A stretch of DNA of 64,000 nucleotides. It comes from Balanoglossus misakiensis (Eukaryota; Animalia; Hemichordata). Of the stretch, positions 8,772-64,000 are shown piece by piece. The notes beneath the pieces were generated by a model that was not told the DNA's origin, ran no database searches, and saw only the letters and a program-made list of their open reading frames with translations. Each line of letters opens with the position of its first letter. Position 1 is the first letter of the stretch. The stretch spans positions 12,247,654 to 12,311,653 of the forward strand of contig CM082577.2 in assembly GCA_040954595.2 (NCBI GenBank). The letters are read 5' to 3'. Made by a program: the position numbers and the translations under genes.

Positions 8772-10705
8772 TTAGGGTTTCGAGACCCTCTGGTCTCGAA
8801 ACCCTCTTGAAATCGTGTTGTTTTTTATTATTATTATTATTCTTCTTCCCACTCTTAAAAACAGCCGCTATTCGAAGACCGTTGCACCCAATGACTTGAA
8901 ATTTGGCTCATAGGTAAAACTCAAAGCAAGTAATTTTCTGATCATGTAACTATGGCAACAGGTCACATGACCTGGCAGCCATCTTGGATTGAAAGTTTAA
9001 AATTGATCTCATTTGCATAAAAAATGACGAATCAAAATTCTTTGAACAAACTTTGTGGACCATATGGCCAGGGTCCTATATGCAAAATTTCAATGTTCAA
9101 GTCTTTGCCGATTTTGAGGAGATGATTTTTAAAGCATTATTTTTCATATTTTTCAAGACCATTGGACCCAGCCTTAGGCCTATACTTTCCATAGTTAAGC
9201 TATGGCCACCTAGGATCTTAGATTTATGCCCAATATCTCAACATCCGCTGGGCTGATCAGCTTCAAATTTATTGTGCAGCTAGCCTACCTTCCAACAATC
9301 AGTTCCAACTGGAAAAAATAATATGAAAAATCGACCGATTTTTTTATATTAATTTTTTTATGAAATCTATACCTATACGTATTCCACTATAGTTAAGCTA
9401 TGGCCAAGTCGTTTTGTAGAATTCTGGTTGGTGCAATAGTCCTATCGGCCAGTGTGCAGCATAGGACCACAAAAAGAAGCCAAATTAATTCAAGGGTCAC
9501 CTGTGACACCTGCCTAACTCATTAATTATGTGCATACCTAATTCGAGGCAAACCAATAGGGCTACAGGTCTGATTTTTGTTAGACATGGACCAGTATGGG
9601 GTCAAATTATCCCCCAAAATTTGGGGTGACCTTGAGTGACCTTTGACCTTCTTCCGCATATCTCGGCATCCAGAGCAGGTACAGCTTAGGTGTTTGGGTG
9701 GATGGTACCAAATTAAGAAGCCAAATTCAAGGGTCACCTGTGACACCTGCCTAACTCATTAATTATGTGCATACCTCATTCCAGGCGAACCAAGGGGGCT
9801 TCAGGTCTGGTGTTTGTTGGATATGTACCACTATGGGGTCAAATTTTCCCCCCAAATTTGGGGTGACCTCGGGTGACCTTTGACCTACTTCCTCATATCT
9901 CGGCATCCACAGCAGGTACAGCTTAGGTGTTTGGGAGGATGGTACCAAAATAAGAAGCCACAATTTAGGGTCACCTGTGACACCTGCATAACTCATTAAT
10001 TATGTGCAAACCTAATTCCAGCCAAACTAACAGGGCTACAGGTCTTGTGTTTGTTGGATATGTACCACTAGGGGATCAAATTGTTTTGCCCAAATTTTGG
10101 GGTGACCTTGGGTGACCTTTGACCTACTTCCACATATCTCAGCATCTAGAGCAGGTACAGCTTAGGTGTTTGGGTGGATGGAACCAAAATAAGAAGCCAA
10201 AATTTAGGGTCACCTGTGACACCTGCCTTACTCATTAATTATGTGCATACCTAATTCCAGGCGAACTAACAGGACTACAGGTCTGGTGTTTGTTGGACAT
10301 GGACCAGTATGGGGTCAAATTTTCCCCCAAAATTTCGGGTGACCTTGGGTGACCTTTGACCTACTTCCGCATATCTCGGCATCCACAGCAGGTACAGCTT
10401 AGGTGTTTGGGAGGATGGTACCAAAATAAGTAGCCAAAATTTAGGACCACCTGTGACACCTGCCTAACTATGTGCATAACTAAGTACACACGAACCAATA
10501 GGGCTAGATGTGTGGTTTTTATTGGACATGGACCAATATAGTGTCAAAATTTTCTGCTCATATTTAGGGTGACCTCACATGACGTTTGGCCAACTTTCCC
10601 ACATCCTCCACCCTGACTAATTAAATATGCACATATCTATCTCCAGGCGAACCAATAGGGCTAGCAGTGTCTCGAAACCCGCTTATTGCTGTTCACAGCT
10701 ATATT
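8772..10705 (+). mobile_element. Complete non-autonomous Helentron-associated element (HINE/DINE-1-like)
   Basis: 5' hairpin AGGGTTTCGAGACC-ctct-GGTCTCGAAACCCT; (TTA)n/(TTC)n microsatellite; ~5 internal ~238-bp tandem repeats (9494-10680); 3' subTIR GTCTCGAAACCC (10669-10680); terminal stem-loop GCTGT-tc-ACAGC; T-rich flanks with no TSD. Confidence 0.85.
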
Positions 10706-50334: not shown

Positions 50335-50905
50335 GGGGTACGGCATGGCGAACTGCAACGACGTATTTGCGAACAGCTGAAAAGCGAGATAGACCTTGTA
50401 AACGTACGTAGTTGAGAATTACTTCCTGCCACGGAGAACTTGAAACACTATAGTTGACCTCTAAAAACACCTAGAAAATACAAGTTGAGGGCGCATTCAA
50501 CATGGCGTAAGTTGTTTTCAGCGGACATCCAAGCATCGTTAAGTGTCATTTTTGTGGAAAAATTGACATTTGGGAAATCGTGTATGCATGGAAAGGGGTA
50601 GGAAGGGGTATTGTCATATTTCAGATGTACAGGCCCACCCTGTAGAGCTTGTAGGTTTTTTCGTATCTTCTTCAAAAGTAGCGAAGGTTCAACAAAATCG
50701 CTTGGCACAACTATATTCAAACCCATTAGTCCCAGAAGGCGCTAAATTTTATTCCGAAATTTTGCTTTCAAACACATAAATATCAATAAATATTTAAAAT
50801 ATGCGCCCTCAACTTGTATTTCTAGTTATATTTAGGGGTCAACTATAGCGTTTCGGTTCGCAAATATGTCGTTGCAGTTCGCCACGCCGCTTTCTTATGT
50901 ACCCA
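50335..50905. mobile_element. MITE with long imperfect TIRs in intron 1
   Basis: GGCATGGCGAACTGCAACGACGTATTTGCGAAC / GTTCGCAAATATGTCGTTGCAGTTCGCCACGCC; inner arms ctatagttgacc...tacaagttgagggcgcat / atgcgccctcaacttgta...ggtcaactatag. Confidence 0.8.
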
Positions 50906-51143: not shown

Positions 51144-51429
51144 TAGTCTAGTCAAACTACGAGATATGGGCACCTAACCCACCACAAATTGCAACAGAAT
51201 TTTTTTTCTTCACAATGCATTCTAGAACAACATATTAAAAATGTTAAGCATGTTTATTTCTTAATATATGGCCAAAAAATCTCTAATATTGGATTTATGC
51301 AAATTAGACATATTTCCAAAAGGTGGATTCGGGTACATATGTTGTTCTAGTCACCTCTCCAAAATGCATTGTGAAGAAAAAATTTCTGTTGCAATTTGTG
51401 GTGGGTCTAGCCCTATATTGACTAGACTA
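51144..51429. mobile_element. MITE with TAGTCTAGTCAA termini in intron 1
   Basis: TAGTCTAGTCAA / TTGACTAGACTA; inner arms cccaccacaaattgcaacagaa...cttcacaatgcatt and its reverse complement. Confidence 0.82.
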
Positions 51430-51484: not shown

Positions 51485-53281
51485 ATGACCTGTGTAGCTT
51501 GATAGAAGCACTGGATGCTGTTGGAAATCCATCAATCCCTGAAAGTGTATCAGACAAAATTTTGAAATATGATCGTCCGTATGGTTTGTTTAAAACATTA
51601 TGTGACCATGGACATTTATCAAGGGACAATCCTGAAACTCTTATTTATCTGTTGAAAACTGCCAAACTTTACATGTTGGCGAAGCATGTAGAAGTTCGAT
51701 TTGAGAAAAGCTTTGACAAAGACTATCCATATGAGGAAGTGACAAGAGAAGTAGAGTCTAGGATGAAAACTGATAGCCAGAAACAGATAAGTGACAGAAG
51801 TGGAAAGAGTTTGCCAACATTCCCAACGGGCCCACAGTTACCATCTCCCAGTTGGCCAACATTCCCAACTGAGAGGATCTCAGCAGGACCACGGTTACCT
51901 TCTCCCAGTTTGCCAACATTCCCAACTGAGAGGACCTCAGCAGGACCACAGTTACCACCTACCAGTTTCCAAACATTCCCAACTGAGAGGACCTCAGCAG
52001 GACCACAGTTACCATCTACCAGTTTCCAAACATTCCCAACTGAGAGGCCCTCAGCAGGACCACAATTACCATCTCCCAGTTGGCCAACATTCCCAACTGA
52101 GAGGACCTCAGCAGGACCACAGTTTCCATCTACCAGTTTCCAAACATTCCCAACTGAGAGGACCTCAGCAGGACCACAGTTACCATCTACCAGTTTCCAA
52201 ACATTTCCAACTGAGAGGACCTCAGCAGGACCACAGTTACCATCTACCAGTTTCCAAACATTTCCAACTGAGAGGACCTCAGCAGGACCACAGTTTCCAT
52301 CTACCAGTTGGCCAACATTCCCAACTGAGAGGACCTCAGCAGGACCACAGTTACCATCTCCCAGTTGGTCAACTTTCCCAACTGAGAGGACCTCAGCAGG
52401 ACCACAGTTACCATCTCCCAGTTGGTCAACATTCCCAACTGAGAGGACCTCAGCAGGACCACAGTTTCCATCTACCAGTTGGCCAACATTCCCAACTGAG
52501 AGGACCTCAGCAGGACCACAGTTACCATCTCCCAGTTGGTCAACATTCCCAACTGAGAGGACCTCAGCAGGACCACAGTTACCATCTACCAGTTTCCAAA
52601 CATTCCCAACTGAGAGGCCCTCAGCAGGACCACAGTTACCATCTACCAGTTTCCAAACATTTCCAACTGAGAGGATCTCAGCAGGACCACAGTTACCATC
52701 TACCAGTTTCCAAACATTCCCAACTGAGAGGACCTCAGCAGGACCACAGTTACCATCTACCAGTTTCCAAACATTCCCAACTGAGAGGACCTCAGCAGGA
52801 CCACAGTTACCATCTACCAGTTTCCAAACATTCCCAACTGAGAGGCCCTCAGCAGGACCACAGTTACCATCTACCAGTTTCCAAACATTTCCAACTGAGA
52901 GGATCTCAGCAGGACCACAGTTACCATCTACCAGTTTCCAAACATTCCCAACTGAGAGGATCTCAGCAGGACCACAGTTACCATCTACCAGTTTCCAAAC
53001 ATTCCCAACTGAGAGGACCTCAGCAGGACCACAGTTACCATCTACCAGTTTCCAAACATTCCCAACTGAGAGGACCTCAGCAGGACCACAGTTACCATCT
53101 ACAAGTTTCCAAACAATCCCAACTGAGAGGACCTCAGCAGGACCACAGTTACCAATACCATCTCCCTCAAAGCGCCCACGTCCCACAAGAGAAGCATGGT
53201 CAATGGCATCAACTCGTCCCAACATTCCAGCAGTGACAGCCACTCATTCCAAGGCTCAAGTATCCACAACAGAATCTCATG
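51485..53281 (+). CDS. NLR-like gene exon 2: rest of the DED followed by the Pro/Ser/Thr-rich 19-aa repeat region
   Basis: Long polypyrimidine acceptor before 51485; donor G|gtaagc; LFKTLCDHGHLSRDNPETLIYLLKTAKLYMLAKHV matches the DED consensus (LF..L...g.ls.dn...L..lL......L...v). Confidence 0.85.
51813..53165 (+). repeat. Coding minisatellite, 57-bp unit, ~23 copies (PTERTSAGPQLPSTSFQTF)
   Basis: ccaactgagagg recurs every 57 bp from 51865 to 53119. Confidence 0.97.
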
Positions 53282-53625
53282 GTAAGCACTTGTATTAAAT
53301 ACAAATATTGTAATCATCCTTAATGTTCAACTACAATTAAATAATTATGAATTTGAAAGAGATGAAATGATAGGAAAAAATGTTTATCTTTATAGATGGT
53401 CGAAGTTGCTGAAACACATGGCATTTTAAGATCATCTGACCCTTGAAAAAGTGCCATGCACAATACATTCAAAAAGTCATGGCTAGATGCTGTGGTCATG
53501 ACCATATATCCTACATAAGGTTTTAAATGTTCTCAATTGAAACCTAAATTGCCAAATGTAAAAGGAATTCCACACACACAATGAATTCATCCAATCCCTC
53601 CATGTTTATCTTTCATATACTTCAG

Positions 53626-53853
53626 GTATGTCATATGTCGGTGATGTTGCTGCTAGCAGTGCAGTTAGTTCAGCTGAAATACAGAAAGAGATGACGACAA
53701 TGATGAAAGATCCAGAAGGTGAAACCACAAGTGTACAACACCACATCGACAGACATGATTTACGTTGTGCACTGTATCCCTTGATGGCAAGACTGCATTC
53801 ATCATCACCTCTGCAACAAACTGATTCAGTAGTTATGGACACTAATGAGAAAG
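53626..53853 (+). CDS. NLR-like gene exon 3, Ser/Thr-rich linker
   Basis: Acceptor tttcatatacttcag; donor G|gtaaga; 228 nt, phase 1/1, open frame. Confidence 0.7.
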
Positions 53854-55373
53854 GTAAGATTTTTTACAAATTTAAAATATACAGAAGCTGTTCAAGATAC
53901 ACATTGCTTATCAATGATAGCCATTCAAAGATTCCACTATGCAAGTATTGATCGACAGCTGCCATTACCCATCCCCAACTTCAAATGTTCACTGATGCTT
54001 TTCATGTAAATTTTCCATGTCAAAAACTTTGTCATATGTGTGTGCAGCACGCACAGTTGTTGACAGGAGTGCCTTGGAACTTTCACCTACATGTATAGCT
54101 ACTAGCAAATCATCTCGGTCAAACTCTCTACAACGTAGTACGTACTTTATAATGGAGACAATGATGTATTACAAGTGGTTACAAGTAAAACAGTACTGTT
54201 TTTGAGAACATACATTTTATATGATTGTGTAAAACATTTGTGAATTTAAAGTAATTTAGAAGACAGAAAAGTGTCACAATGACAAGTTGAGAAAATGGGA
54301 AGTTTCCCTTATGCTCCCCCCCCCCCCACTGATGGTGAGTTGTCACCTCTTCAGAACAGAATCATGGAAAGAGGAATAGTCTGTATATGTAAAGAGGAAC
54401 CATGCAAACCTCACTACCTACAAAATGTACACACACATGTAAATACATTCAGAGTTATACCGGTATCTCACCATTGGAACTAATTTATCATTTAAACCTT
54501 TTGGACTGTGCTCTTTCAATGCAACCATAAGGTGAACAAACTATGTCTGGTCTGTCTTTTGTGTATTGTCTGTTTTGAAATGATGACTTGTTTGCATGAA
54601 ATTCTATAAGAGATTATACGAACTATAAGAGATACTGTCAAGGGATATATGGGTTTTGTGCGTGTTAGTGTTACATGTGGGTGGGGACGTGGTCATTGTG
54701 AAATTGGATAGAGGGATGTTTGATGCAAAATGAAAAGAGAACTTATATATCAATAGCTACCATGTGCAATCCCTGGCAAAAGAAATATTGGCAGAACTTC
54801 AATTTATGGCTTGATCAACTTATCATTTGTGCAATTGTGTTATTCTGATCTTGAGTTTTGCTTTATCATAGTGGAATTTCTTCTGTGTGTTATCCACAAG
54901 CAATTAACCCTGTCAAAAGCTGAGGTTTTGTGTGTGATGTACTTTTTACCCCCCACCCCCAGTATTCTTCATTCTGGTTCTTGCTATATAAAAATTGTAA
55001 GAACAAATCTTAGAGGAGAATGTATCTGCTGCAGTCACAATTCTAGGATATTCACTTTCATAGGTAGGGGAGGGAATTTGTGTATTACTGTGAGACCAAG
55101 TTTCTCCTTCCTGGACTGATAAAATAAAAAAGGACAACAATGTAGATGAAGGATTATTGATGTTTAAGGGTCAGTATCATGAATTTGTTGCCAAAATTCA
55201 CTTTTGGACAAATTTACTCTGTCAGAGTGGATTTTGACTGAGGTGCTTGTAAAAATTCTAGAAATACAGTGTAACTACAATGCTGACACTAGAAACAAAC
55301 ACATAATAGGAGTCAGTTGTTCCCGAATATATGTCTTACAGTATTTGACAATTGTATTCTGATCTGTTTTCAG

Positions 55374-56591
55374 ATAATGACCTCAAATTGACTACTGTAT
55401 TCCTGGCCGAGAAGTGGAATCGTGTGAAGGATACTGTATCTGCCCTCAACTGTCAACTTGCCAGCAGTGTAGCTGAAGACAGACAACGTAAAACATGTTG
55501 TGTTGTTTTGGAGGCAAGTGATGCAGAAAGGAAAGATGCAGCTGATTGTGGAGTTGAGTTGATACTTCCAAGTTTGAGAAAGGGTGTGATTAAGAGATAC
55601 AAGAATGACACACCGAAGCCAGATTGGTTTCTTTCTCCAGAGACATTCTTCACAAATCTCAGGGAGTTACAGAATGTGAAGTACATTGTGGAACATGTCC
55701 AGTCTTCAACTCAATTGCTGGTGGCAAATGTCTTCAGAGATCGATATCATCATTTCAAAGATGCCAACATTGTACTAATAAATCATGCCATCACAGGATC
55801 GGATGAGATAAACAAAGACCACTTGAAATTTGCTGAGGAGGCATCTGCAATTTTCTCAATTGGACCTACTGTCTTTGAACATTACAAGAAACTCTACCAA
55901 ACAACCAAAATTCCAGTAAGACACGAATTGTATCTTCCAAGACCAGAGAAAGAATTCTTTGATCTTAATGTGGATCAGATACAAAAAACAAGTGACTTGA
56001 AACAAATCCTGACTGTGATAACGGATGAAGATTTGGAATCCACACGATATAAAACACTGGCAGCTGAAGTTGGAAAAACAGCCGGTACATTCAACCAGAT
56101 GCAAATGACGGTTCCATTGTGGTGTGTACGAACTCCCTCGGAAGCTGATGTTGCTGACACAAAGACTTTTCTTACAGACAACTTAAATTGCCCACACATA
56201 GAACCAAACACTTATCCCTCATACGGCTCTCAAGATGATATTTACAGAGATTTACGTCAGAGTAATGTCTGTATTATACCACCTGATGAGCCATTTAGGA
56301 TGGAGGGATTACGATCCATTGCTGCAGGACTACCTGTGTTAGTTCCAGAAAGAACTGCCTTAGCAGCATTTATGAACACATGCTTTGACCATGAAGCAAA
56401 GTATTTTCTGTATGACCCTTCAGTTGATGGAAATTTATCAATACAGATCAATACGATGTTGAACACAACACATGCAATACCCATGGCGACACGTTTGAAG
56501 AATATGTATCTCAGTCATACAGAGATTACTGACAGTCATGAAAAGTTCAGAGCTTGTTTCAAAGAAGTTCAGAGTACACAGCCTGCACAAA
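55374..56591 (+). CDS. NLR-like gene exon 4: GT-B fold glycosyltransferase (GT4/Glycos_transf_1-like) domain with degenerate motifs
   Basis: Acceptor ctgttttcag; donor A|gtaagt; motifs IVLINH, ASAIFSIGP and SNVCIIPPDEPFRMEGLRSIAAGLPVLV (compare GT4 EgFGlvalEAmaaGlPVlv). Confidence 0.82.
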
Positions 56592-56940
56592 GTAAGTATC
56601 TTTCCTTTTCCACACACAATCCCAAAACAAAAATGCAGTCTCAGATACAGGATAGAATGAAAGGGCAGTAACCTGATGAAATATATACTTTTAAATTGAA
56701 AATTTCACTTCAGATGATGTTAACAAGCAAACACATCATCCTGTTTCCAGCAAAATGAAATTGAACTTGAAAAATGATGATGGTGTGACATTACTGTAGC
56801 TCTTTTTTGGAACAAATATTTTTTAAAAAAACAGTGATTGATTACATTGTGACAGTGAAGCATTTTAACAACTTGTAAATACACGTACAAGGTTGGAAGA
56901 CTTTTAGTTATTAGATTTTTGTTTCTTTTTTTTCTATCAG

Positions 56941-57057
56941 TTCCAACACCTCAATCACAATTGCAGAATGGAAAGACTCCTTCAACTCATGAAGCTTTAG
57001 CAACTTTTGAAGATGGCCAGCCTCCCCAGTCACTCTCACCCAAGCCAGAAAACCTGG
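56941..57057 (+). CDS. NLR-like gene exon 5, Pro/Ser-rich linker
   Basis: Acceptor ttttttctatcag; donor G|gtaagt; 117 nt, phase 1/1. Confidence 0.78.
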
Positions 57058-57192
57058 GTAAGTACAATTTATTTGATAAGTTGCAGGCTCCCCTGCAATA
57101 TGTTATCTGTAAATCTTATTTGTATTACCGGTAATCGTGTTAAGATATTTTTGCTGCAAATGTGTCATTAAACTTTATTTGCTGTTTTCTAG

Positions 57193-57315
57193 TTATATCC
57201 GTAAGTCGCAAATCACCAGCCCATAATGTAAAGAGTCCTTTAACTGATGAAGGTGTAGGAAGTTTTGAATATGCCTGTTCTTCCCAGACACTCTCACCCC
57301 AGCCACAAAACCTTG
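57193..57315 (+). CDS. NLR-like gene exon 6, linker whose 3' end is paralogous to exon 5
   Basis: Acceptor gttttctag; donor G|gtaagt; 123 nt open frame ending SQTLSPQPQNL (exon 5 ends PQSLSPKPENL). Confidence 0.72.
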
Positions 57316-57452
57316 GTAAGTAGAGTTTGATTGCTTACTTTAATTGGACCAGCAGTTTAAAAACTAATTACTTTGACAATTTTTTATCATTAAAAAGGGA
57401 AATAACATTGGCTGTTTTACATTTTCAGTTTCGTGTATTGAATGTTTATTAA

Positions 57453-58048
57453 AGCCCCAGTATTTCTCGTGTGTATCCATTTTTCATCATCGAAAAATAT
57501 TGCCCGTTTTTCCTGTACATTCATCATGGAATGCTACATAATGAAGATAGAAGAAAGGTTTGGGCAACTGTAGCTACATGCAAGCTGTAAATATTGCCTG
57601 TAACACTCGAAATGATGCGCGGGTTTCTTTACAACGGAAATGTTGTACAAGTCGATCAGCAAACTTGCCACTTTGACATTTGATGTCAGACCATTTTAAG
57701 ATTTGATCGGGTTCCATCGGGTGATTTCGTCCCATATAGTTATCTTCCCAAAATTCCACCGAATTAGTGTGCATTTCTTCGCTGAGTCGCTTGATTTGGG
57801 GCGACCAAACCTCTTCCGCATAGATTCACATTTGAGTGCGCATGCGCAGTAGTCACGTGTGTCAACAGAGCCTGACTTTCTGTCCGGACAGAAAGTCATT
57901 CTTCACTCGTTATATTGTAAATTGTATGTGTTTATGAACAGACCTGGGCATGATAACTGTTTGATTCAGTATCAATTATCATCTACTTTTAGAAATTATA
58001 GATGCCGTTTCAAACAAAATTTATGCGAAAACGAGAAATACTGAGGCT
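57453..58048. mobile_element. Complete non-autonomous Kolobok-like DNA transposon in intron 6
   Basis: TTAA-AGCCCCAGTATTTCTCGT ... ACGAGAAATACTGAGGCT-TTAA: 18-bp TIR with one mismatch, TTAA TSD. Confidence 0.85.
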
Positions 58049-58292
58049 TTAATAAACTCTCTGTGTTGAAACAACCCATTTGTAACTTGCACAAATATTT
58101 TCCTGGGATTAAAACAGGAGAAATAAATTGAGACAGTCATGAGTGTCATAAATTCATGAAAGTCATAATTACTGGTATATGCAACAATATATAATTTTCA
58201 GCTTTACCTGCATGCCCATGTCACTTGTGAAAAATGTGAAGGGTACTGCACTTTTCTGACCTAACATTTGTTTTTAAACTTTATCCTTACAG

Positions 58293-58385
58293 GAAATCCA
58301 GTATCTGCTGTTGTTTCAGATGATACACCAACAAGTGAAACTCACAAATCAAAACTAATACGACGGAAAAGGCCATTGATGCCAA
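58293..58385 (+). CDS. NLR-like gene exon 7, containing a basic NLS-like patch (KSKLIRRKRP)
   Basis: Acceptor ttatccttacag; donor A|gtaagt; 93 nt, phase 1/1. Confidence 0.75.
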
Positions 58386-58816
58386 GTAAGTTGTTTCCTG
58401 CCTTGTACTCTTTTATGATTAATAGAATTTTCCCTTTTCCCATCATCTATCAATCACTTATCCCAAAATACCAAAGTTTCTAGGACAGTCACCCCCTGGA
58501 CATTTACCCATCAGACATCTTATCCCGCCCTGAATATCAAGACTGACTGGGGGCTTAGTGAAATGATTATTTGCATATGTTTTGGTATTACACCGCTATG
58601 GCAGTTAATGTCACTTACTCAAGACACACAATTAAGATATCTGAGCTCTAGCATTAACATTAACTGACACTATATGTTTTCTTACATTATCATCTGTTTT
58701 GATATTTCATTGCTATTTCTAGTAGGATGAAAACATATTACTCTTTTAGGAGAAAATATTTTGGTCATTAAGTGAAAGTCAATACTAAAATGTTTTACTG
58801 TTTATTCAATCTGTAG

Positions 58817-59584
58817 CTGTTCATTGTGAAGTAAATCTAGAGTTTGAAGAAAAGAAGATGAAGATTGAGATGGAAAAGATGAGAGTGGAAACAGAACGCA
58901 AGAAAATGGAGCTTGAAGCAGAACATAAAAGGATGGAGCTTGAAACAGAACAGAAAAGGATGGAGCTTGAAACAGAAAAGAAAAGGATGGAGCTTGAAAC
59001 AGAAAAGAAAAGGATGGACCATGAAACAGAAAAGAAAAGGATGGATCATGAAACAGAACATAAAAGGATGGAGCTTGAAACAGAACAGAAAAGGATGGAC
59101 CATGAAACAGAACACAAAAGGATTGAGCTTGAAACAGAAAAGACGAAGATCGAAATGGAGAAAGAAAACAAAGCAATGGAGCTTGAAAGAGAGAAAATGG
59201 AACTTGAAAGGGAGAAAATGAAGCAGAAACAGATGTTCATAAATCAAATATCAGCAATTTATGAACTTCAGATAAAGAAAATCGTGGACAGGGATGACTC
59301 GGATCTGATAGAACAGTTGGATAAAGCCTGTGAGCAACATAAAGCAAGATTAGTCTTAGATGGAGTTGGACTCGGTTCTTTGTGGTTCTTACTAAGTTTC
59401 CTTTCAGAGGACGACATTGATTATTTCTGGCAGAAATACAATGCTGGAGAAGTTGATGAAATGCTGAGTGGTATCCTAATAACATCCGAGATGAGATCAC
59501 TAGCAGAGAAAGCTGGATGTGTTGTCAGAATCCGAATGAAGATAGATGAAAAGGAGTATGAGACTGTCAAACACATACTTCATG
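58817..59584 (+). CDS. NLR-like gene exon 8: charged 9-aa helical repeat followed by a TRADD-N-like domain
   Basis: Acceptor ctgtag; donor G|gtgagt; (MELETEKKR)n, then GSLWFLLSFLSEDDIDYFWQKYNAGEVDEMLSGILIT...VRIRMKIDEKEY, which resembles the invertebrate TRADD-like_N domain. Confidence 0.8.
58880..59150 (+). repeat. 27-bp coding tandem repeat, ~10 copies
   Basis: atggagcttgaaacagaa(c/a)agaaaagg units. Confidence 0.92.
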
Positions 59585-59968
59585 GTGAGTATTTAAGTCT
59601 TCACAATATTAATAAATGCATCACTCATACTTTTCACAAATTCCTATTCTAACACATCATAGTGTATATCTACCTATCTGCCCTGAGAGCATCAATGTAT
59701 CTGAGCTACACTCAGGGCAGATATACATTTCCTATACTTAGAGAAGTTCATTTTCATTACCTTACTCCTGAATTGGATATATAATTAACAAGATTTAACT
59801 GTACTTCGTGACTGTTGATAATAATCTGAAATAGTTGTATCACTAAAATAAAACTTTGATGTGAAAGAAATGTATTCCTGAATGACTTTTTTGAGATAAG
59901 CCAGCCAAACAATTATGCGTAATTTGTGGTGTAAATAGACTAAGAACAATACATATTTTTTTTGTCAG

Positions 59969-60203
59969 ATATATCTGCTGTCTACACCATCCCTGAGAAG
60001 ACCTGGGTGAGGACTGTCACATACGATGAATGGGAGAGATATGTTATAGATCATGTAGAAGAGAACAGACAAGCTTAGTATTTGATACAGCAGTCCACAT
60101 TTCATCCAATTGTGGGTGAATTGAGATCAGAAGTATTTTTTCTTTCCTTCTCTTGTATCTTACTGGTATGAGAATTGTTACACTTTACCATCAACTTTGA
60201 CAG
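59969..60203 (+). pseudogene. Disrupted 5' part of the last exon (end of the NACHT NBD and HD1-like segment) with in-frame TAG at 60076-60078 and a +1 frameshift near 60151
   Basis: Acceptor ttttttgtcag at 59968 gives DISAVYTIPEKTWVRTVTYDEWERYVIDHVEENRQA*YLIQQSTFHPIVGELRSEVFFLSF; the next frame continues LVSYWYENCYTLPSTLTEA. Confidence 0.6.
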
Positions 60204-63200
60204 AGGCAACTGAATATGCAATTAAACATCATGTGAAGATGTACTGTAGGGAACATCAAATTGAGATAGAGAATCTTTGTGAAATTGGGCAACAAGAATA
60301 TTTTAAATGTCAAAAAGTCACAAAATTGCAGAATTGGTTTTTCACCAGTCATGAAAAGAAGTATTTCTTTAATTTGGTAAGAGATCTCTACGGGTACTAT
60401 ATTTTTCCTTTGGATCAAAAGAAACATAACTACCAGTATCACTTCTTGAGTCAGTATATATATTTTTATGCAGTTGCTTTATATGTCAGCAAAGATATAT
60501 TTCTGAAGCAACAAACAGTTGAAATGTTGGATGAGTTCATGCCCATTACTCTATATTATGTAGCTGGTATCCTTCACGAGAATGCAACATTCTTCTTTGA
60601 AATACTCACAAATCATACTATAAAGAAACATCCAGTGACCTATGACTGTTTTGCACTACTTGGGTCTTGTCTTCTTGAATCAAAATATCCAGAAAAGTTT
60701 ACAAGCATTATTCAACAGTTATTAAAACCCCAAATATTAGAACTATCAGAATATGATATAAATAGAGTCTCTCAGCAAAGTTTGCAAGCTGCATCCCTTA
60801 TTATAGGGAACACTTCTGTTGTTCAGAATATCAATTTGACAAGCGATAAAGAAAGGGCATACATTTCAGAGGAGTTCAACCAACACCTGAATGTAATGAT
60901 TGAAAATCCATCATCAGCTGTCAAATTTCAAGTGAAAAACTCAACTGAGTTGACTGTGGTCACTAGATATATCACATTCCACAGGCTTTTCATGGCTCAC
61001 ACACAAAAATCTGTCAAAGGTCATAGTGAGGTCAGTCTGAAGGATGTGACTATTGAAGCGGTTGATGACAACTTTCAGGATGTTGTTCATGAAACAATTC
61101 AGGCCCTTGTCAAAGCATTGGGATCACTGCCTCTGTTGAAATCACTCAATTTCACTGGATTTAATGATGTATTTGTCACAAAGGTTTTCGAAATGATGGT
61201 AAATAAAAATGTTTCATTAAAAGTAAGACAGTTAGAGTTGCCACATAATGATTTAGAATACACCTTTATTGGTGTACTTCTGAGAGCTGTCAAATGTTTT
61301 CCATTTTTGAAGGATATAGATGTCTCAAACAACAAGTTAGGTTCCCGTGGGTGTGCAGAATTGTTACCATTTGTTGATGAAATCAATGTTCTGTTGGAGA
61401 ATAATGGTGTGGAAGAAAGTCTTGAAAGGTTATTAGAGTGTGAACAGATTGCAAACCAGGTTGGAGATTTCAAATCACATGTGACTCATTTCAAAACTGT
61501 GGGTGACATTTTCAATTTGCACAAACAACTAAACTCTGTAGAACAAATGTGTGTTTCAAGTTTATCTTCTGACATTACCAACTTGCTATGTTTAAATTTG
61601 TTTTTCTTCAAGAACTTAAAACATTTAGTTATTACTGAGTCTGGTTTCACTACTGATAATGCTAAAGTTGTTGCTGACAGTTTTGTGCATCTGTTGTCTC
61701 TAAGACGCTTAGACATCAGTTCAAATAACATAGGAGATGGAGGCATAAAATACATAGGCGGCAAACTGCATATACTGGAATTTCTCACTGATGTTAATTT
61801 TAGTAACACTGGTATCAGTTTGAGAGGAATAGTTGGTTTGTTGAACACTGTGCGACAGAATCAACAACAAATTGTCAATGTTGCAAACAATGACATCAGA
61901 GGCCTTAAGTATATCCTACCACTTGTTCCACGGGAACTGCAGACATCCTTCCATAATGTCAATTTTGATGAAGACATTCTAACTTTAGATAAATTAATAT
62001 TCATCGAGGAAGTTGTCATAGCATGTAAAATTGTGGAAGTAAGTAAGCAGTGGAGTCAGGCTGAATTTGAAGACTTCTGTGATGGGTTGAGTATTCTTTC
62101 ATGTGTAGATACTCTTAAACTTAGTGGTTGTCATTTTGGAGATGTTGGTGCAGAGAGTTTAAATAAAGGGATGGGGAATATGATTGGGCTGGAACACCTG
62201 GATCTTAGTCGTAATAACATTGGAGATGTTGGTGCAGAGAGTTTAAGTAGAGGGATGGGGAATATGACTGGGCTGAGACACCTGGATCTTAGTCATAATA
62301 ACATTGGAGATGTTGGTGCTGAGAGTTTAAGTAGAGGGATGGGGAATATGACTGGGTTGGGACACCTGGATCTTAGTCGTAATAACATTGGAGATGTTGG
62401 TGCAGAGAGTTTAAGTAGAGGGATGGGGAATATGACTGGGCTGATGCAACTGGATCTTAGTCGTAATAACATTGGAGATGTTGGTGCAGAGAGTTTAAGT
62501 AGAGGGATTGGGAATATGACTGAGCTGAGACAACTGGATCTTAGTCATAATAACATTGGATATGTTGGTGCAGAGAGTTTAAGTAAAGGGATGGGGAATA
62601 TGACTGAGCTGTGGTACCTGAATCTTAGTCATAATAACATTGGAGATGTTGGTGCAGAGAGTTTAAGTAGAGGGATGGGGAATATGACTGGGCTGAGACA
62701 ACTGGATCTTAGTCGTAATAACATTGGAGATGTTGGTGCAGAGAGTTTAAGTAAAGGGATGGGGAATATGACTGGGCTGAAATACCTGCATCTTAGTCAT
62801 AATAACATTGGAGATGTTGGTGCAGAGAGTTTAATTAGAGGGATTGGGAATATGATTTGGCTGAGACACCTGGATCTTAGTCATAATAACATTGGAGTTG
62901 TTGGTGCAGAGAGTTTAAGTAAAGGGATGGGGAATATGACTTGGCTGAGATACCTGAATCTTAGTCATAATAACATTGGAGATGTTGGTGCAGAGAGTTT
63001 AAGTAAAGGGATGGGGAATATGACTGGGCTGAAATACCTGCATCTTAGTCATAATAACATTGGAGATGTTGGTGCAGAGAGTTTAAGTAAAGGGATGGGG
63101 AATATGACTGGGCTGAAATACCTGCATCTTAGTCATAATAACATTGGAGATGTTGGTGCAGAGAGTTTAAGTAGAGGGATTGGGAATATGACTTGGCTGA

Positions 63201-63553
63201 GACACCTGGATCTTAGTCATAATAACATTGGAGATGTTGGTGCAGAGAGCTTAAGAAAATTGAACTATATGACTTGGTCAGAGGATCTTGTTGGCAAAAG
63301 GACTGCTTTGGTTGAGCCATATACCACTTTTAAGTCAGAAATTAGACATAAAAAAAGTCAATCACTAGCAAAAGAATCTGGTCGCAGTGAAAGTCACAAG
63401 TTGAAGTATGACACAAAAACTGCTGCAATGTCTGACTTTAATGTAAGTGAATCAGATGTTGATGTTGATGTTCTCTTATCTAGGAAATTTAAAAGACAAA
63501 GTGAGTCATATACCGCTTCTAGGTCTGAATTTGGACACGAAAAGAAGTCTTAG
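60204..63553 (+). CDS. NLR-like gene terminal exon: NACHT-associated HD1/winged-helix/HD2 remnant plus ribonuclease-inhibitor-type LRRs
   Basis: Within the 1118-aa ORF; YQYHFLSQYIYFYAVALYV resembles the WHD motif YxFxHxsfQEffAAlyl; many LxxLxLSxNNIGDxGAxxL repeats; no Walker A/B motif. Confidence 0.88.
62138..63250 (+). repeat. 84-bp coding tandem repeat: 13 near-identical 28-aa LRR units plus a partial unit
   Basis: ggagatgttggtgcagagagttta recurs every 84 bp from 62138 to 63230. Confidence 0.97.
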
Positions 63554-63875
63554 GCTAAAAGACAATAAGATCTGTTTCCAACTTCTCAATACAAGTCAAA
63601 ATCTGGTTGTTGTAAAAGTCATAAGCTGAAATATGATACAAAATGTGCCGGTGTTCCAATGTTTGGCTTACTCTATTTTACAGAAGAGGGTTCTGCTGAA
63701 TCTGGTGTAGATGTTTTCTTCTCTGGCGAATTTGAAAGATTGGGTGAGCAGCATACATCTTTTTAGGTATGAATTTGGAGATGAAAAAAAGTCTTTGGGG
63801 GAAAAAGACAGGAAGATCTATTTGCTACTTGTCAATGCAAGTCAAAAACTGGTACTTATGAAAGTCACAAACCAA
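63370..63875 (+). repeat. Diverged ~230-245-bp tandem duplication spanning the stop codon
   Basis: Blocks aag.tgaa.tatga.acaaaa, gatgtt.tctt, tgaatttgga.a.gaaaa.aagtct, aagatct and aagtcaaaa.ctggt each occur twice in the same order. Confidence 0.65.
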
Positions 63876-64000
63876 TAAAGATTGGATGATCCATTGGCAA
63901 TGTCTAATGTCAGAATCTGGTCGCTATGAAAGTTACAAAGCAAAATGATTGTATGATCCATTTCCCATCTCTAATTAAAGCCATGACGTCTCCACATTGG

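Follow-up and report, generated by a model that had tools for sequence, protein, structure and literature searches.

A probably disrupted acorn worm gene from a putative NLR-derived family lacking the nucleotide-binding domain

The closest described counterparts of the proteins considered here are the metazoan NACHT-LRR receptors, among them NLRP3, NLRC4, NOD2 and the coral GT1/GT4-NACHT-LRR proteins, whose regulation is generally held to centre on the nucleotide switch. The passages of the literature relevant to our comparison place the nucleotide-binding domain (NBD) of NLRP3 at residues 135-372 and its HD1 at 373-437 (PMC8931350), and attribute contacts with the nucleotide in NLRs to a proline of HD1 and a histidine of the WHD (PMC7583971). 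NAIP retains its NBD and works with a helper, NLRC4; according to the relevant part of PMC7583971, its ligand specificity resides in HD1, WHD and HD2, the very part kept in the family described below. Coral GT1-NACHT-LRR genes are described in the corresponding part of PMC12314368. The iSTAND, iSTAND2 and nSTAND2 modules, as outlined in sections of PMC8195603, resemble this family in being STAND-derived proposed receptors without working NTP motifs, but they are bacterial and keep an eroded NTPase domain, whereas here the domain is physically absent.

The domain layout of the family has precedents. Section 11 of Kaur et al. (2021; PMC8195603) reports GT4-TRADD-N-LRR proteins in cephalochordates, hemichordates and cnidarians, and rows of the supplement list CARD+TIR+TRADDN-DEDD2+LRRs in Branchiostoma, which is the layout of our relatives P0022, P0023, P0026 and P0027. 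Of the 23 'TRADDN-DEDD2+LRR' rows of that supplement, the 15 compared here carry no annotated feature between TRADD-N and LRR. Thus, the GT4/CARD+TRADD-N+LRR layout is already in PMC8195603; the section and rows compared do not note an HD1-WHD-HD2 module without an NBD or an NLR origin. NLR surveys select by NACHT in the parts that describe their selection (PMC2858798; 10.1101/2025.07.21.665930, the latter by Pfam NACHT). Surveys that choose in this way miss such genes, so that invertebrate receptor counts would be too low. At the level of listings of the open-access literature, we found no report of an NBD-less HD1-WHD-HD2-LRR family. The 2008 amphioxus immune-gene survey by Huang et al. reportedly includes death-fold+LRR genes without NACHT, and may cover the amphioxus members.

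The window analysed here, a 64,000-nucleotide stretch of Balanoglossus misakiensis DNA, carries a gene that we read, with a probability of about 0.6, as a broken copy from a hemichordate-amphioxus family of NBD-less proteins with a predicted HD1-WHD-HD2-LRR organization, likely to be nucleotide-independent intracellular sensors. Like the metazoan NACHT-LRR receptors, the family has a predicted HD1-WHD-HD2 followed by RI-like LRRs, and death-fold or GT4 N-termini (for the coral layout, see the pertinent part of PMC12314368). It differs from them in the loss of the whole NBD (Walker A/B and sensor 1), in the presence of a TRADD-N-like domain in its place and in the loss of the HD1 proline and WHD histidine from most members. 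Having no NBD, the window gene is not an NLR by membership, but the predicted models suggest that it is NLR-derived.

Layout of the window gene

The eight modelled exons span 51485-63553 on the plus strand and amount to 7,929 nt; every one is GT-AG and has a length divisible by three. The features are as follows.

51485-53281, plus strand: exon with a partial DED-like domain (Pfam DED E=0.004, under the cut-off) and a 57-nt tandem repeat (23 copies, Pro/Thr/Ser-rich linker), limits from splice sites
53626-53853, plus strand: modelled linker exon, GT-AG, frame preserved
55374-56591, plus strand: GT4-conflict glycosyltransferase exon (PF20706, E=1.5e-23)
56941-58385, plus strand: three short linker exons (56941-57057, 57193-57315 and 58293-58385), GT-AG, frame preserved
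58817-59584, plus strand: exon 8, with a charged 27-nt repeat (58873-59143) and then a TRADD-N-like domain (about 59290-59583)
59585-59968, plus strand: intron 8, 384 bp, where the NBD would be expected
59969-60015, plus strand: linker of about 16 residues, a low-pLDDT coil in the model of a relative (residues 102-111), with no alignment to NLR chains
60016-60190, plus strand: HD1-like helical domain, approximate limits, broken in the window copy (residue 116 of relative P0002 corresponds to NLRP3 374)
60076-60078, plus strand: premature TAG stop, in frame
60136-60141, plus strand: T-run with one extra base, a +1 frameshift seen as a frame change in tblastn
60191-60800, plus strand: WHD-like and HD2-like domains, approximate limits, from the core model on NLRP3 374-679
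60801-63553, plus strand: RI-like LRR region (LRR_6, E=5e-89) with 13 tandem 84-nt units (62135-63226), tail and stop, in an open frame

Pfam thus returned a weak DED, a GT4-conflict domain and LRRs for the window gene, and no match for the segment 59971-60800. The GT4 exon shares 53-59% identity with four Ptychodera proteins, and two of the three short linker exons gave weak tblastn matches to P0001. The charged repeat of exon 8 is likely to form a coiled coil. An upstream search did not find a start-codon exon 5' of 51485. Just 5' of the first modelled exon, at 50341-50889 and 51177-51406, lie nested inverted repeats with 21-36-nt arms, which resemble small non-autonomous transposons and may have displaced the start exon. 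The 57-nt coding repeat (51832-53154; 95% matches between copies, no indels) was not seen in relatives P0001-P0003.

Intron phase is identical throughout the coding exons (51485-63553). Together with exon lengths in threes, this would favour exon shuffling, in agreement with the varied N-termini of the family, which comprise GT4, DED, DED+GT4, CARD+TIR and Death. DED, CARD and Death domains score above the Pfam cut-off in relatives; in the window gene, the first exon of which was not found, the DED reaches only the E-value given above. The usual GT4 donor-binding motif is EX7E. At 56288-56314 the window reads EPFRMEGLR, and three Ptychodera relatives have EPFRMEALW or EPFSVEALQ; judged from these letters, the window GT4, in which the second Glu is not at +8, may be altered or inactive.

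The HD1-WHD-HD2 core and the missing NBD

From four protein searches and a cluster look-up we obtained 27 proteins, of which 25 were kept. P0021 was dropped as a Roc-COR protein matched through its LRRs only, and P0024 because it lacks the core. Source names were available for 20 of the 25 relatives (12 from Ptychodera flava, one from Glandiceps talaboti, one from Saccoglossus and six from Branchiostoma), and the Ptychodera proteins are closest, with 38-42% identity over the query and 57-69% around the two lesions. The relatives are database gene predictions, and five of the 25 begin at or near the exon 8/9 junction, making them uninformative on upstream sequence.

The preliminary description of this locus recognized HD1-like and WHD-like segments in the last exon. 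By sequence alone the resemblance is not significant, with Pfam and PDB searches blank, but the predicted structures of relatives bear it out. A PDB sequence search with the core profile found no NLR, while the full profile gave LRR matches, and the best sequence-level match to a NACHT subdomain among members was NLRC4_HD2 at E=0.053. Structure prediction was applied to relatives P0002 (TRADD-N, core and LRRs; mean pLDDT 82.6) and P0013 (core; 87.1) in place of the window copy, and gave models resembling the HD1-WHD-HD2 of NLRs. For both, the top listed Foldseek matches were NLR-containing, with E-values of 1.6e-3 or weaker for the core alone. VIA-align placed P0013 residues 21-299 on NLRP3 374-679 (Z 15.6, rmsd 4.3, 246 residues), and the same core also on NLRC4 303-659 and NOD2 428-801; every entry ranked 1-42 contained an NLR (Z 8.4-15.6), and unrelated folds began at 5.8. 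In P0002 the match runs over NLRP3 374-675, with Z values of 15.6-16.0 for the folded relatives. An Atlas structure search with an independent P0002 model returned NACHT clusters in 8 of 10 rows (TM 0.63-0.68). These matches between NLRs and the predicted folds of relatives are at 10-15% identity.

Since the match to the relatives starts at NLRP3 374 and HD1 starts at 373, it begins at the border between NBD and HD1, so that the NBD is missing in its entirety and HD1-WHD-HD2 is complete. Residues 1-115 of P0002 gave no structural alignment. The segment TWVRTVTYDEWERYV, previously taken for the end of the NBD, is mostly the first HD1 helix: the structural match begins at the residue equivalent to about 60019, preceded by only about 16 linker residues of the last exon, which are at most a final trace of the NBD.

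As initially described, the gene contains neither a GxxGxGK[ST] nor a Walker B motif. A six-frame motif search detected no NACHT-type Walker A or B in any frame of 53,000-60,200, and none in the whole window, where the scan gave two generic GK[ST] matches, both on the minus strand and far upstream (12682 and 47994). The 384-bp length of intron 8 was also confirmed, with the last-exon acceptor at 59968/59969. A hidden NBD exon was rejected on the negative motif scan and because the family profile matches the window only at exon 8 and in two frames of the last exon. A search for an inactive STAND domain, an NTPase fold with eroded motifs, was likewise negative, as no part of the models aligns to an NBD and some 16 residues separate TRADD-N from HD1. 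Three coded runs of one sample (X1, X2 and X3) cover the region. X3 showed no depth in intron 8, and its three junction contigs begin at 59968; one of them has a 10-letter loose end identical to 59574-59583, the end of exon 8, which is unique in the window. We infer that this contig, from one sample and with a short overhang, represents a paralog transcript (about 92% alike) in which exon 8 is spliced directly to 59969, with nothing in between.

Loss of the NBD is a trait of the family and not a quirk of the window gene. It is common to hemichordate and amphioxus proteins at 20-68% identity. None of the 25 relatives has a Pfam NACHT or NB-ARC domain, and a motif scan of 23 of them found neither a Walker B nor, N-terminal to the LRRs, a P-loop; the sole P-loop-like match lies inside the LRRs of P0004. 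The Ptychodera proteins are continuous across the exon 8/9 junction of the window and through both lesions. P0016 and P0018 have other short sequence between the N-terminal part and the core, and no NBD. In P0018, from Branchiostoma lanceolatum, a Death domain and an acidic linker lead directly into HD1, with neither NBD nor TRADD-N and with the WHD histidine kept; this architecture may represent a separate loss or a further step. The proposal of an NLR that has lost nucleotide switching therefore stands in that no hidden NBD exon was found and HD1, WHD and HD2 hold structurally, but the loss is family-wide rather than specific to this locus, and the copy itself is likely broken. No NBD-bearing close paralog was found in searches using a length window, a word index or a single query, which makes this absence weak, and the deletion was consequently mapped on vertebrate structures. 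In the tree the window groups with GT4-bearing Ptychodera proteins (88/96, unstarred); the amphioxus rows carry a long-branch warning, so the tree is no proof of one origin.

TRADD-N recruits TRAF-type partners. The TRADD-N-like piece of the window was recognized by Atlas feature matches (TRADD-like_N 0.93, 211-215 of 256 features); Pfam was blank for this piece and gave sub-threshold PF20694 in four amphioxus relatives. A regular-expression search placed the TRADD-N strand motif of 15 proteins at a distance of 137-150 residues N-terminal to the motif at the HD1/WHD border; an additional match in P0016 was discounted as spurious. The same spacing was seen by eye in P0006, P0020 and P0027. Overall, in 18 of the 25 relatives, from hemichordates and amphioxus, the domain is joined almost directly to HD1; for comparison, the NLRP3 NBD by itself takes up residues 135-372. 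In the model of P0002 no TRADD-N strands were formed. A complex prediction of TRADD-N against the core, made without the alignment, scored 0.00 and decides nothing either way.

As far as the alignment columns can be assigned, the nucleotide-contact positions are decayed across the family. With column assignment inferred, the HD1 proline (PhhCW motif) is kept in 5 of 26 rows and the WHD histidine in 1 of 26, all from amphioxus; on the same assignment, the proline site of the window falls at its frameshift. The WHD FxH motif had been called degenerate, and the window indeed has Ser at the histidine position.

The probably broken copy and possible roles of the family

The last-exon segment was originally treated as one reading, which does not hold: the TAG at 60076-60078 lies inside it, and 'FFLSF/LVSYW' hides the +1 frameshift at 60136-60141. 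At the TAG position, an amino acid is present in each of the 25 relatives (K in 11, R in 6, E in 3, S in 2, and N, M and D), and they read through the second lesion in a single frame. In the modelled frame, 1,483 codons precede the TAG without interruption and 1,142 open codons follow the frameshift, and the rest of the 7.9-kb coding sequence is intact, including the 23- and 13-unit repeats. The LRRs of the window copy are thus not in the same open frame as GT4/TRADD-N, as they are in relatives P0001 and P0003-P0005, and the copy, if correctly assembled, cannot yield its HD1-LRR portion. A 7.9-kb coding sequence that carries two lesions yet keeps its long repeats in frame points to a very recent break or to an error; given the intact remainder, the copy was likely inactivated very recently, and our best guess is a null allele or young pseudogene. 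The lesions are only 60 nt apart, an arrangement with about a 1.5% chance if random, and a simple pseudogene story does not explain such clustering well. This copy would make a poor experimental subject, and intact paralogs are better suited.

The contigs reflect more than this one copy. X1 alone has 577 contigs over 3.4 kb, of which 122 are at 99% identity or above, 189 at 95-99%, 201 at 90-95% and 65 lower, a spread that points to many related copies, depth not being copy number. Related contigs are one base shorter at 60126-60136 in all three runs (519+60 of a depth of 647-792 in X1, 1010 of 1010 in X2 and 13.3 of 13.3 in X3), and a second contig from X3 carries the one-base-shorter frame. 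The TAG position has no entry in the read tables, probably owing to a filter on contig ends. Around the TAG, three contigs stop one letter before it and one begins just past it, which only hints at another letter at that position.

The copy could be intact in the animal, with the stop and frameshift arising from assembly errors or from a local patch from another copy, and the family reading would then be unchanged. The position of the extra base within a T-run, the shorter form in most of the related contig depth, the intact remainder and the clustering of the lesions would all fit. We nevertheless consider this quite unlikely: a substitution to TAG plus an indel would require two errors in 7.9 kb of otherwise error-free sequence, the contigs are mostly other copies (90-99% alike), and about a tenth of the X1 depth over 60134-60136, with no listed deletion, may be the window allele. 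To a similar degree we doubt that anything is still made from the copy, whether a DED-GT4-TRADD-N protein cut short at the TAG or a splice form around both lesions that would lose HD1 too. Junction-based decay would not act on a stop located in the last exon, the 1,483 open codons are available, clustered lesions fit a dispensable patch, and in-frame routes exist (for instance from the exon 8 donor to the AG ending at 60203, or from the GTGAGG donor at 60007 to the AG ending at 60172). However, such GT/AG pairs arise readily by chance (40 routes were listed), no contig has a joint in the lesion region, and within the family HD1 is the most strongly conserved part, with 57-69% identity to Ptychodera.

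For the intact members, a role as decoys or dominant-negatives that bind canonical NLRs, the ligands of these or pathogen effectors, or as sensors needing a helper NLR in the manner of NAIP-NLRC4, is a minority view that we regard as somewhat unlikely. Proteins without an NBD would form no self-propagating wheel, the GT4 donor-binding motif looks altered, and the portion of 10.1101/2025.07.21.665930 dealing with amphioxus gives its genomes 55-76 NACHT genes as possible partners. Against this, members bear signalling modules of their own (DED, CARD+TIR, Death and GT4), and helper seeding of the NAIP type, as the relevant passages of PMC7583971 have it, uses a NACHT-NACHT contact that is largely absent here. 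A core that is not NLR-derived at all, being a look-alike helical/winged-helix module before the LRRs such as the COR-A of Roco proteins, is very improbable. Weak, sub-cut-off COR-A matches in P0008 (9e-5) and P0017 (5e-4) and the poor NACHT-subdomain E-value might suggest it, but it is largely refuted by the continuous structural match of 230-266 residues to HD1-WHD-HD2, in order and from the domain border. Moreover, a Roc domain occurs in none of the 25 proteins, and amphioxus members keep the HD1 proline and, in one case, the WHD histidine.

We therefore prefer, if only weakly, a switchless sensor with putative output through TRADD-N and the N-terminal modules. It is favoured because NAIPs owe their ligand specificity to the part kept here, and by the variants on exposed LRR strands described below. 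With no NBD, there would be no ADP/ATP switch and no NBD-based wheel. In such a scheme, one old event would have put the TRADD-N exon in the place of the NBD, and HD1-WHD-HD2 would have been retained to cap the LRR solenoid and to serve as its ligand-binding base. TRADD-N and the swappable N-terminal modules would then be brought together when the protein binds a ligand or clusters, and this gathering would replace the ATP-driven wheel. The more extended proposal, that TRADD-N outright replaced the ATPase and that hemichordates and amphioxus thus possess unrecognized NLR-derived receptors, possibly as old as deuterostomes, switchless, sensing through HD1-WHD-HD2-LRR, signalling through TRADD-N with DED, CARD-TIR, Death or GT4, and missed by NACHT censuses, is tentative and in our estimate falls slightly short of even odds. 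An NBD-less HD1-WHD-HD2-LRR kept across two deuterostome groups would show that this half has a job of its own, and the family would serve as a natural reagent for studying that half in the absence of nucleotide.

Among the 13 LRR units of the window, 12 of 20 amino-acid-changing variants fall on six exposed strand positions (p=4e-4), and this pattern holds in two of the four relatives tested; taken as a whole, the N:S excess falls short of significance (p=0.12). At 63550-63900, 3' of the stop codon, lies a degenerate repeat of part of the protein tail, in which an ORF (63569-63766) resembles the last codons. At the other end of the window, a Cys-containing exon-like frame of 113 codons without a Pfam match occupies 925-1266. 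Between 25300 and 46400, about 21 kb consists of interspersed 238-nt and 155-nt tandem arrays, and the 238-nt unit occurs again at 9493-10575.
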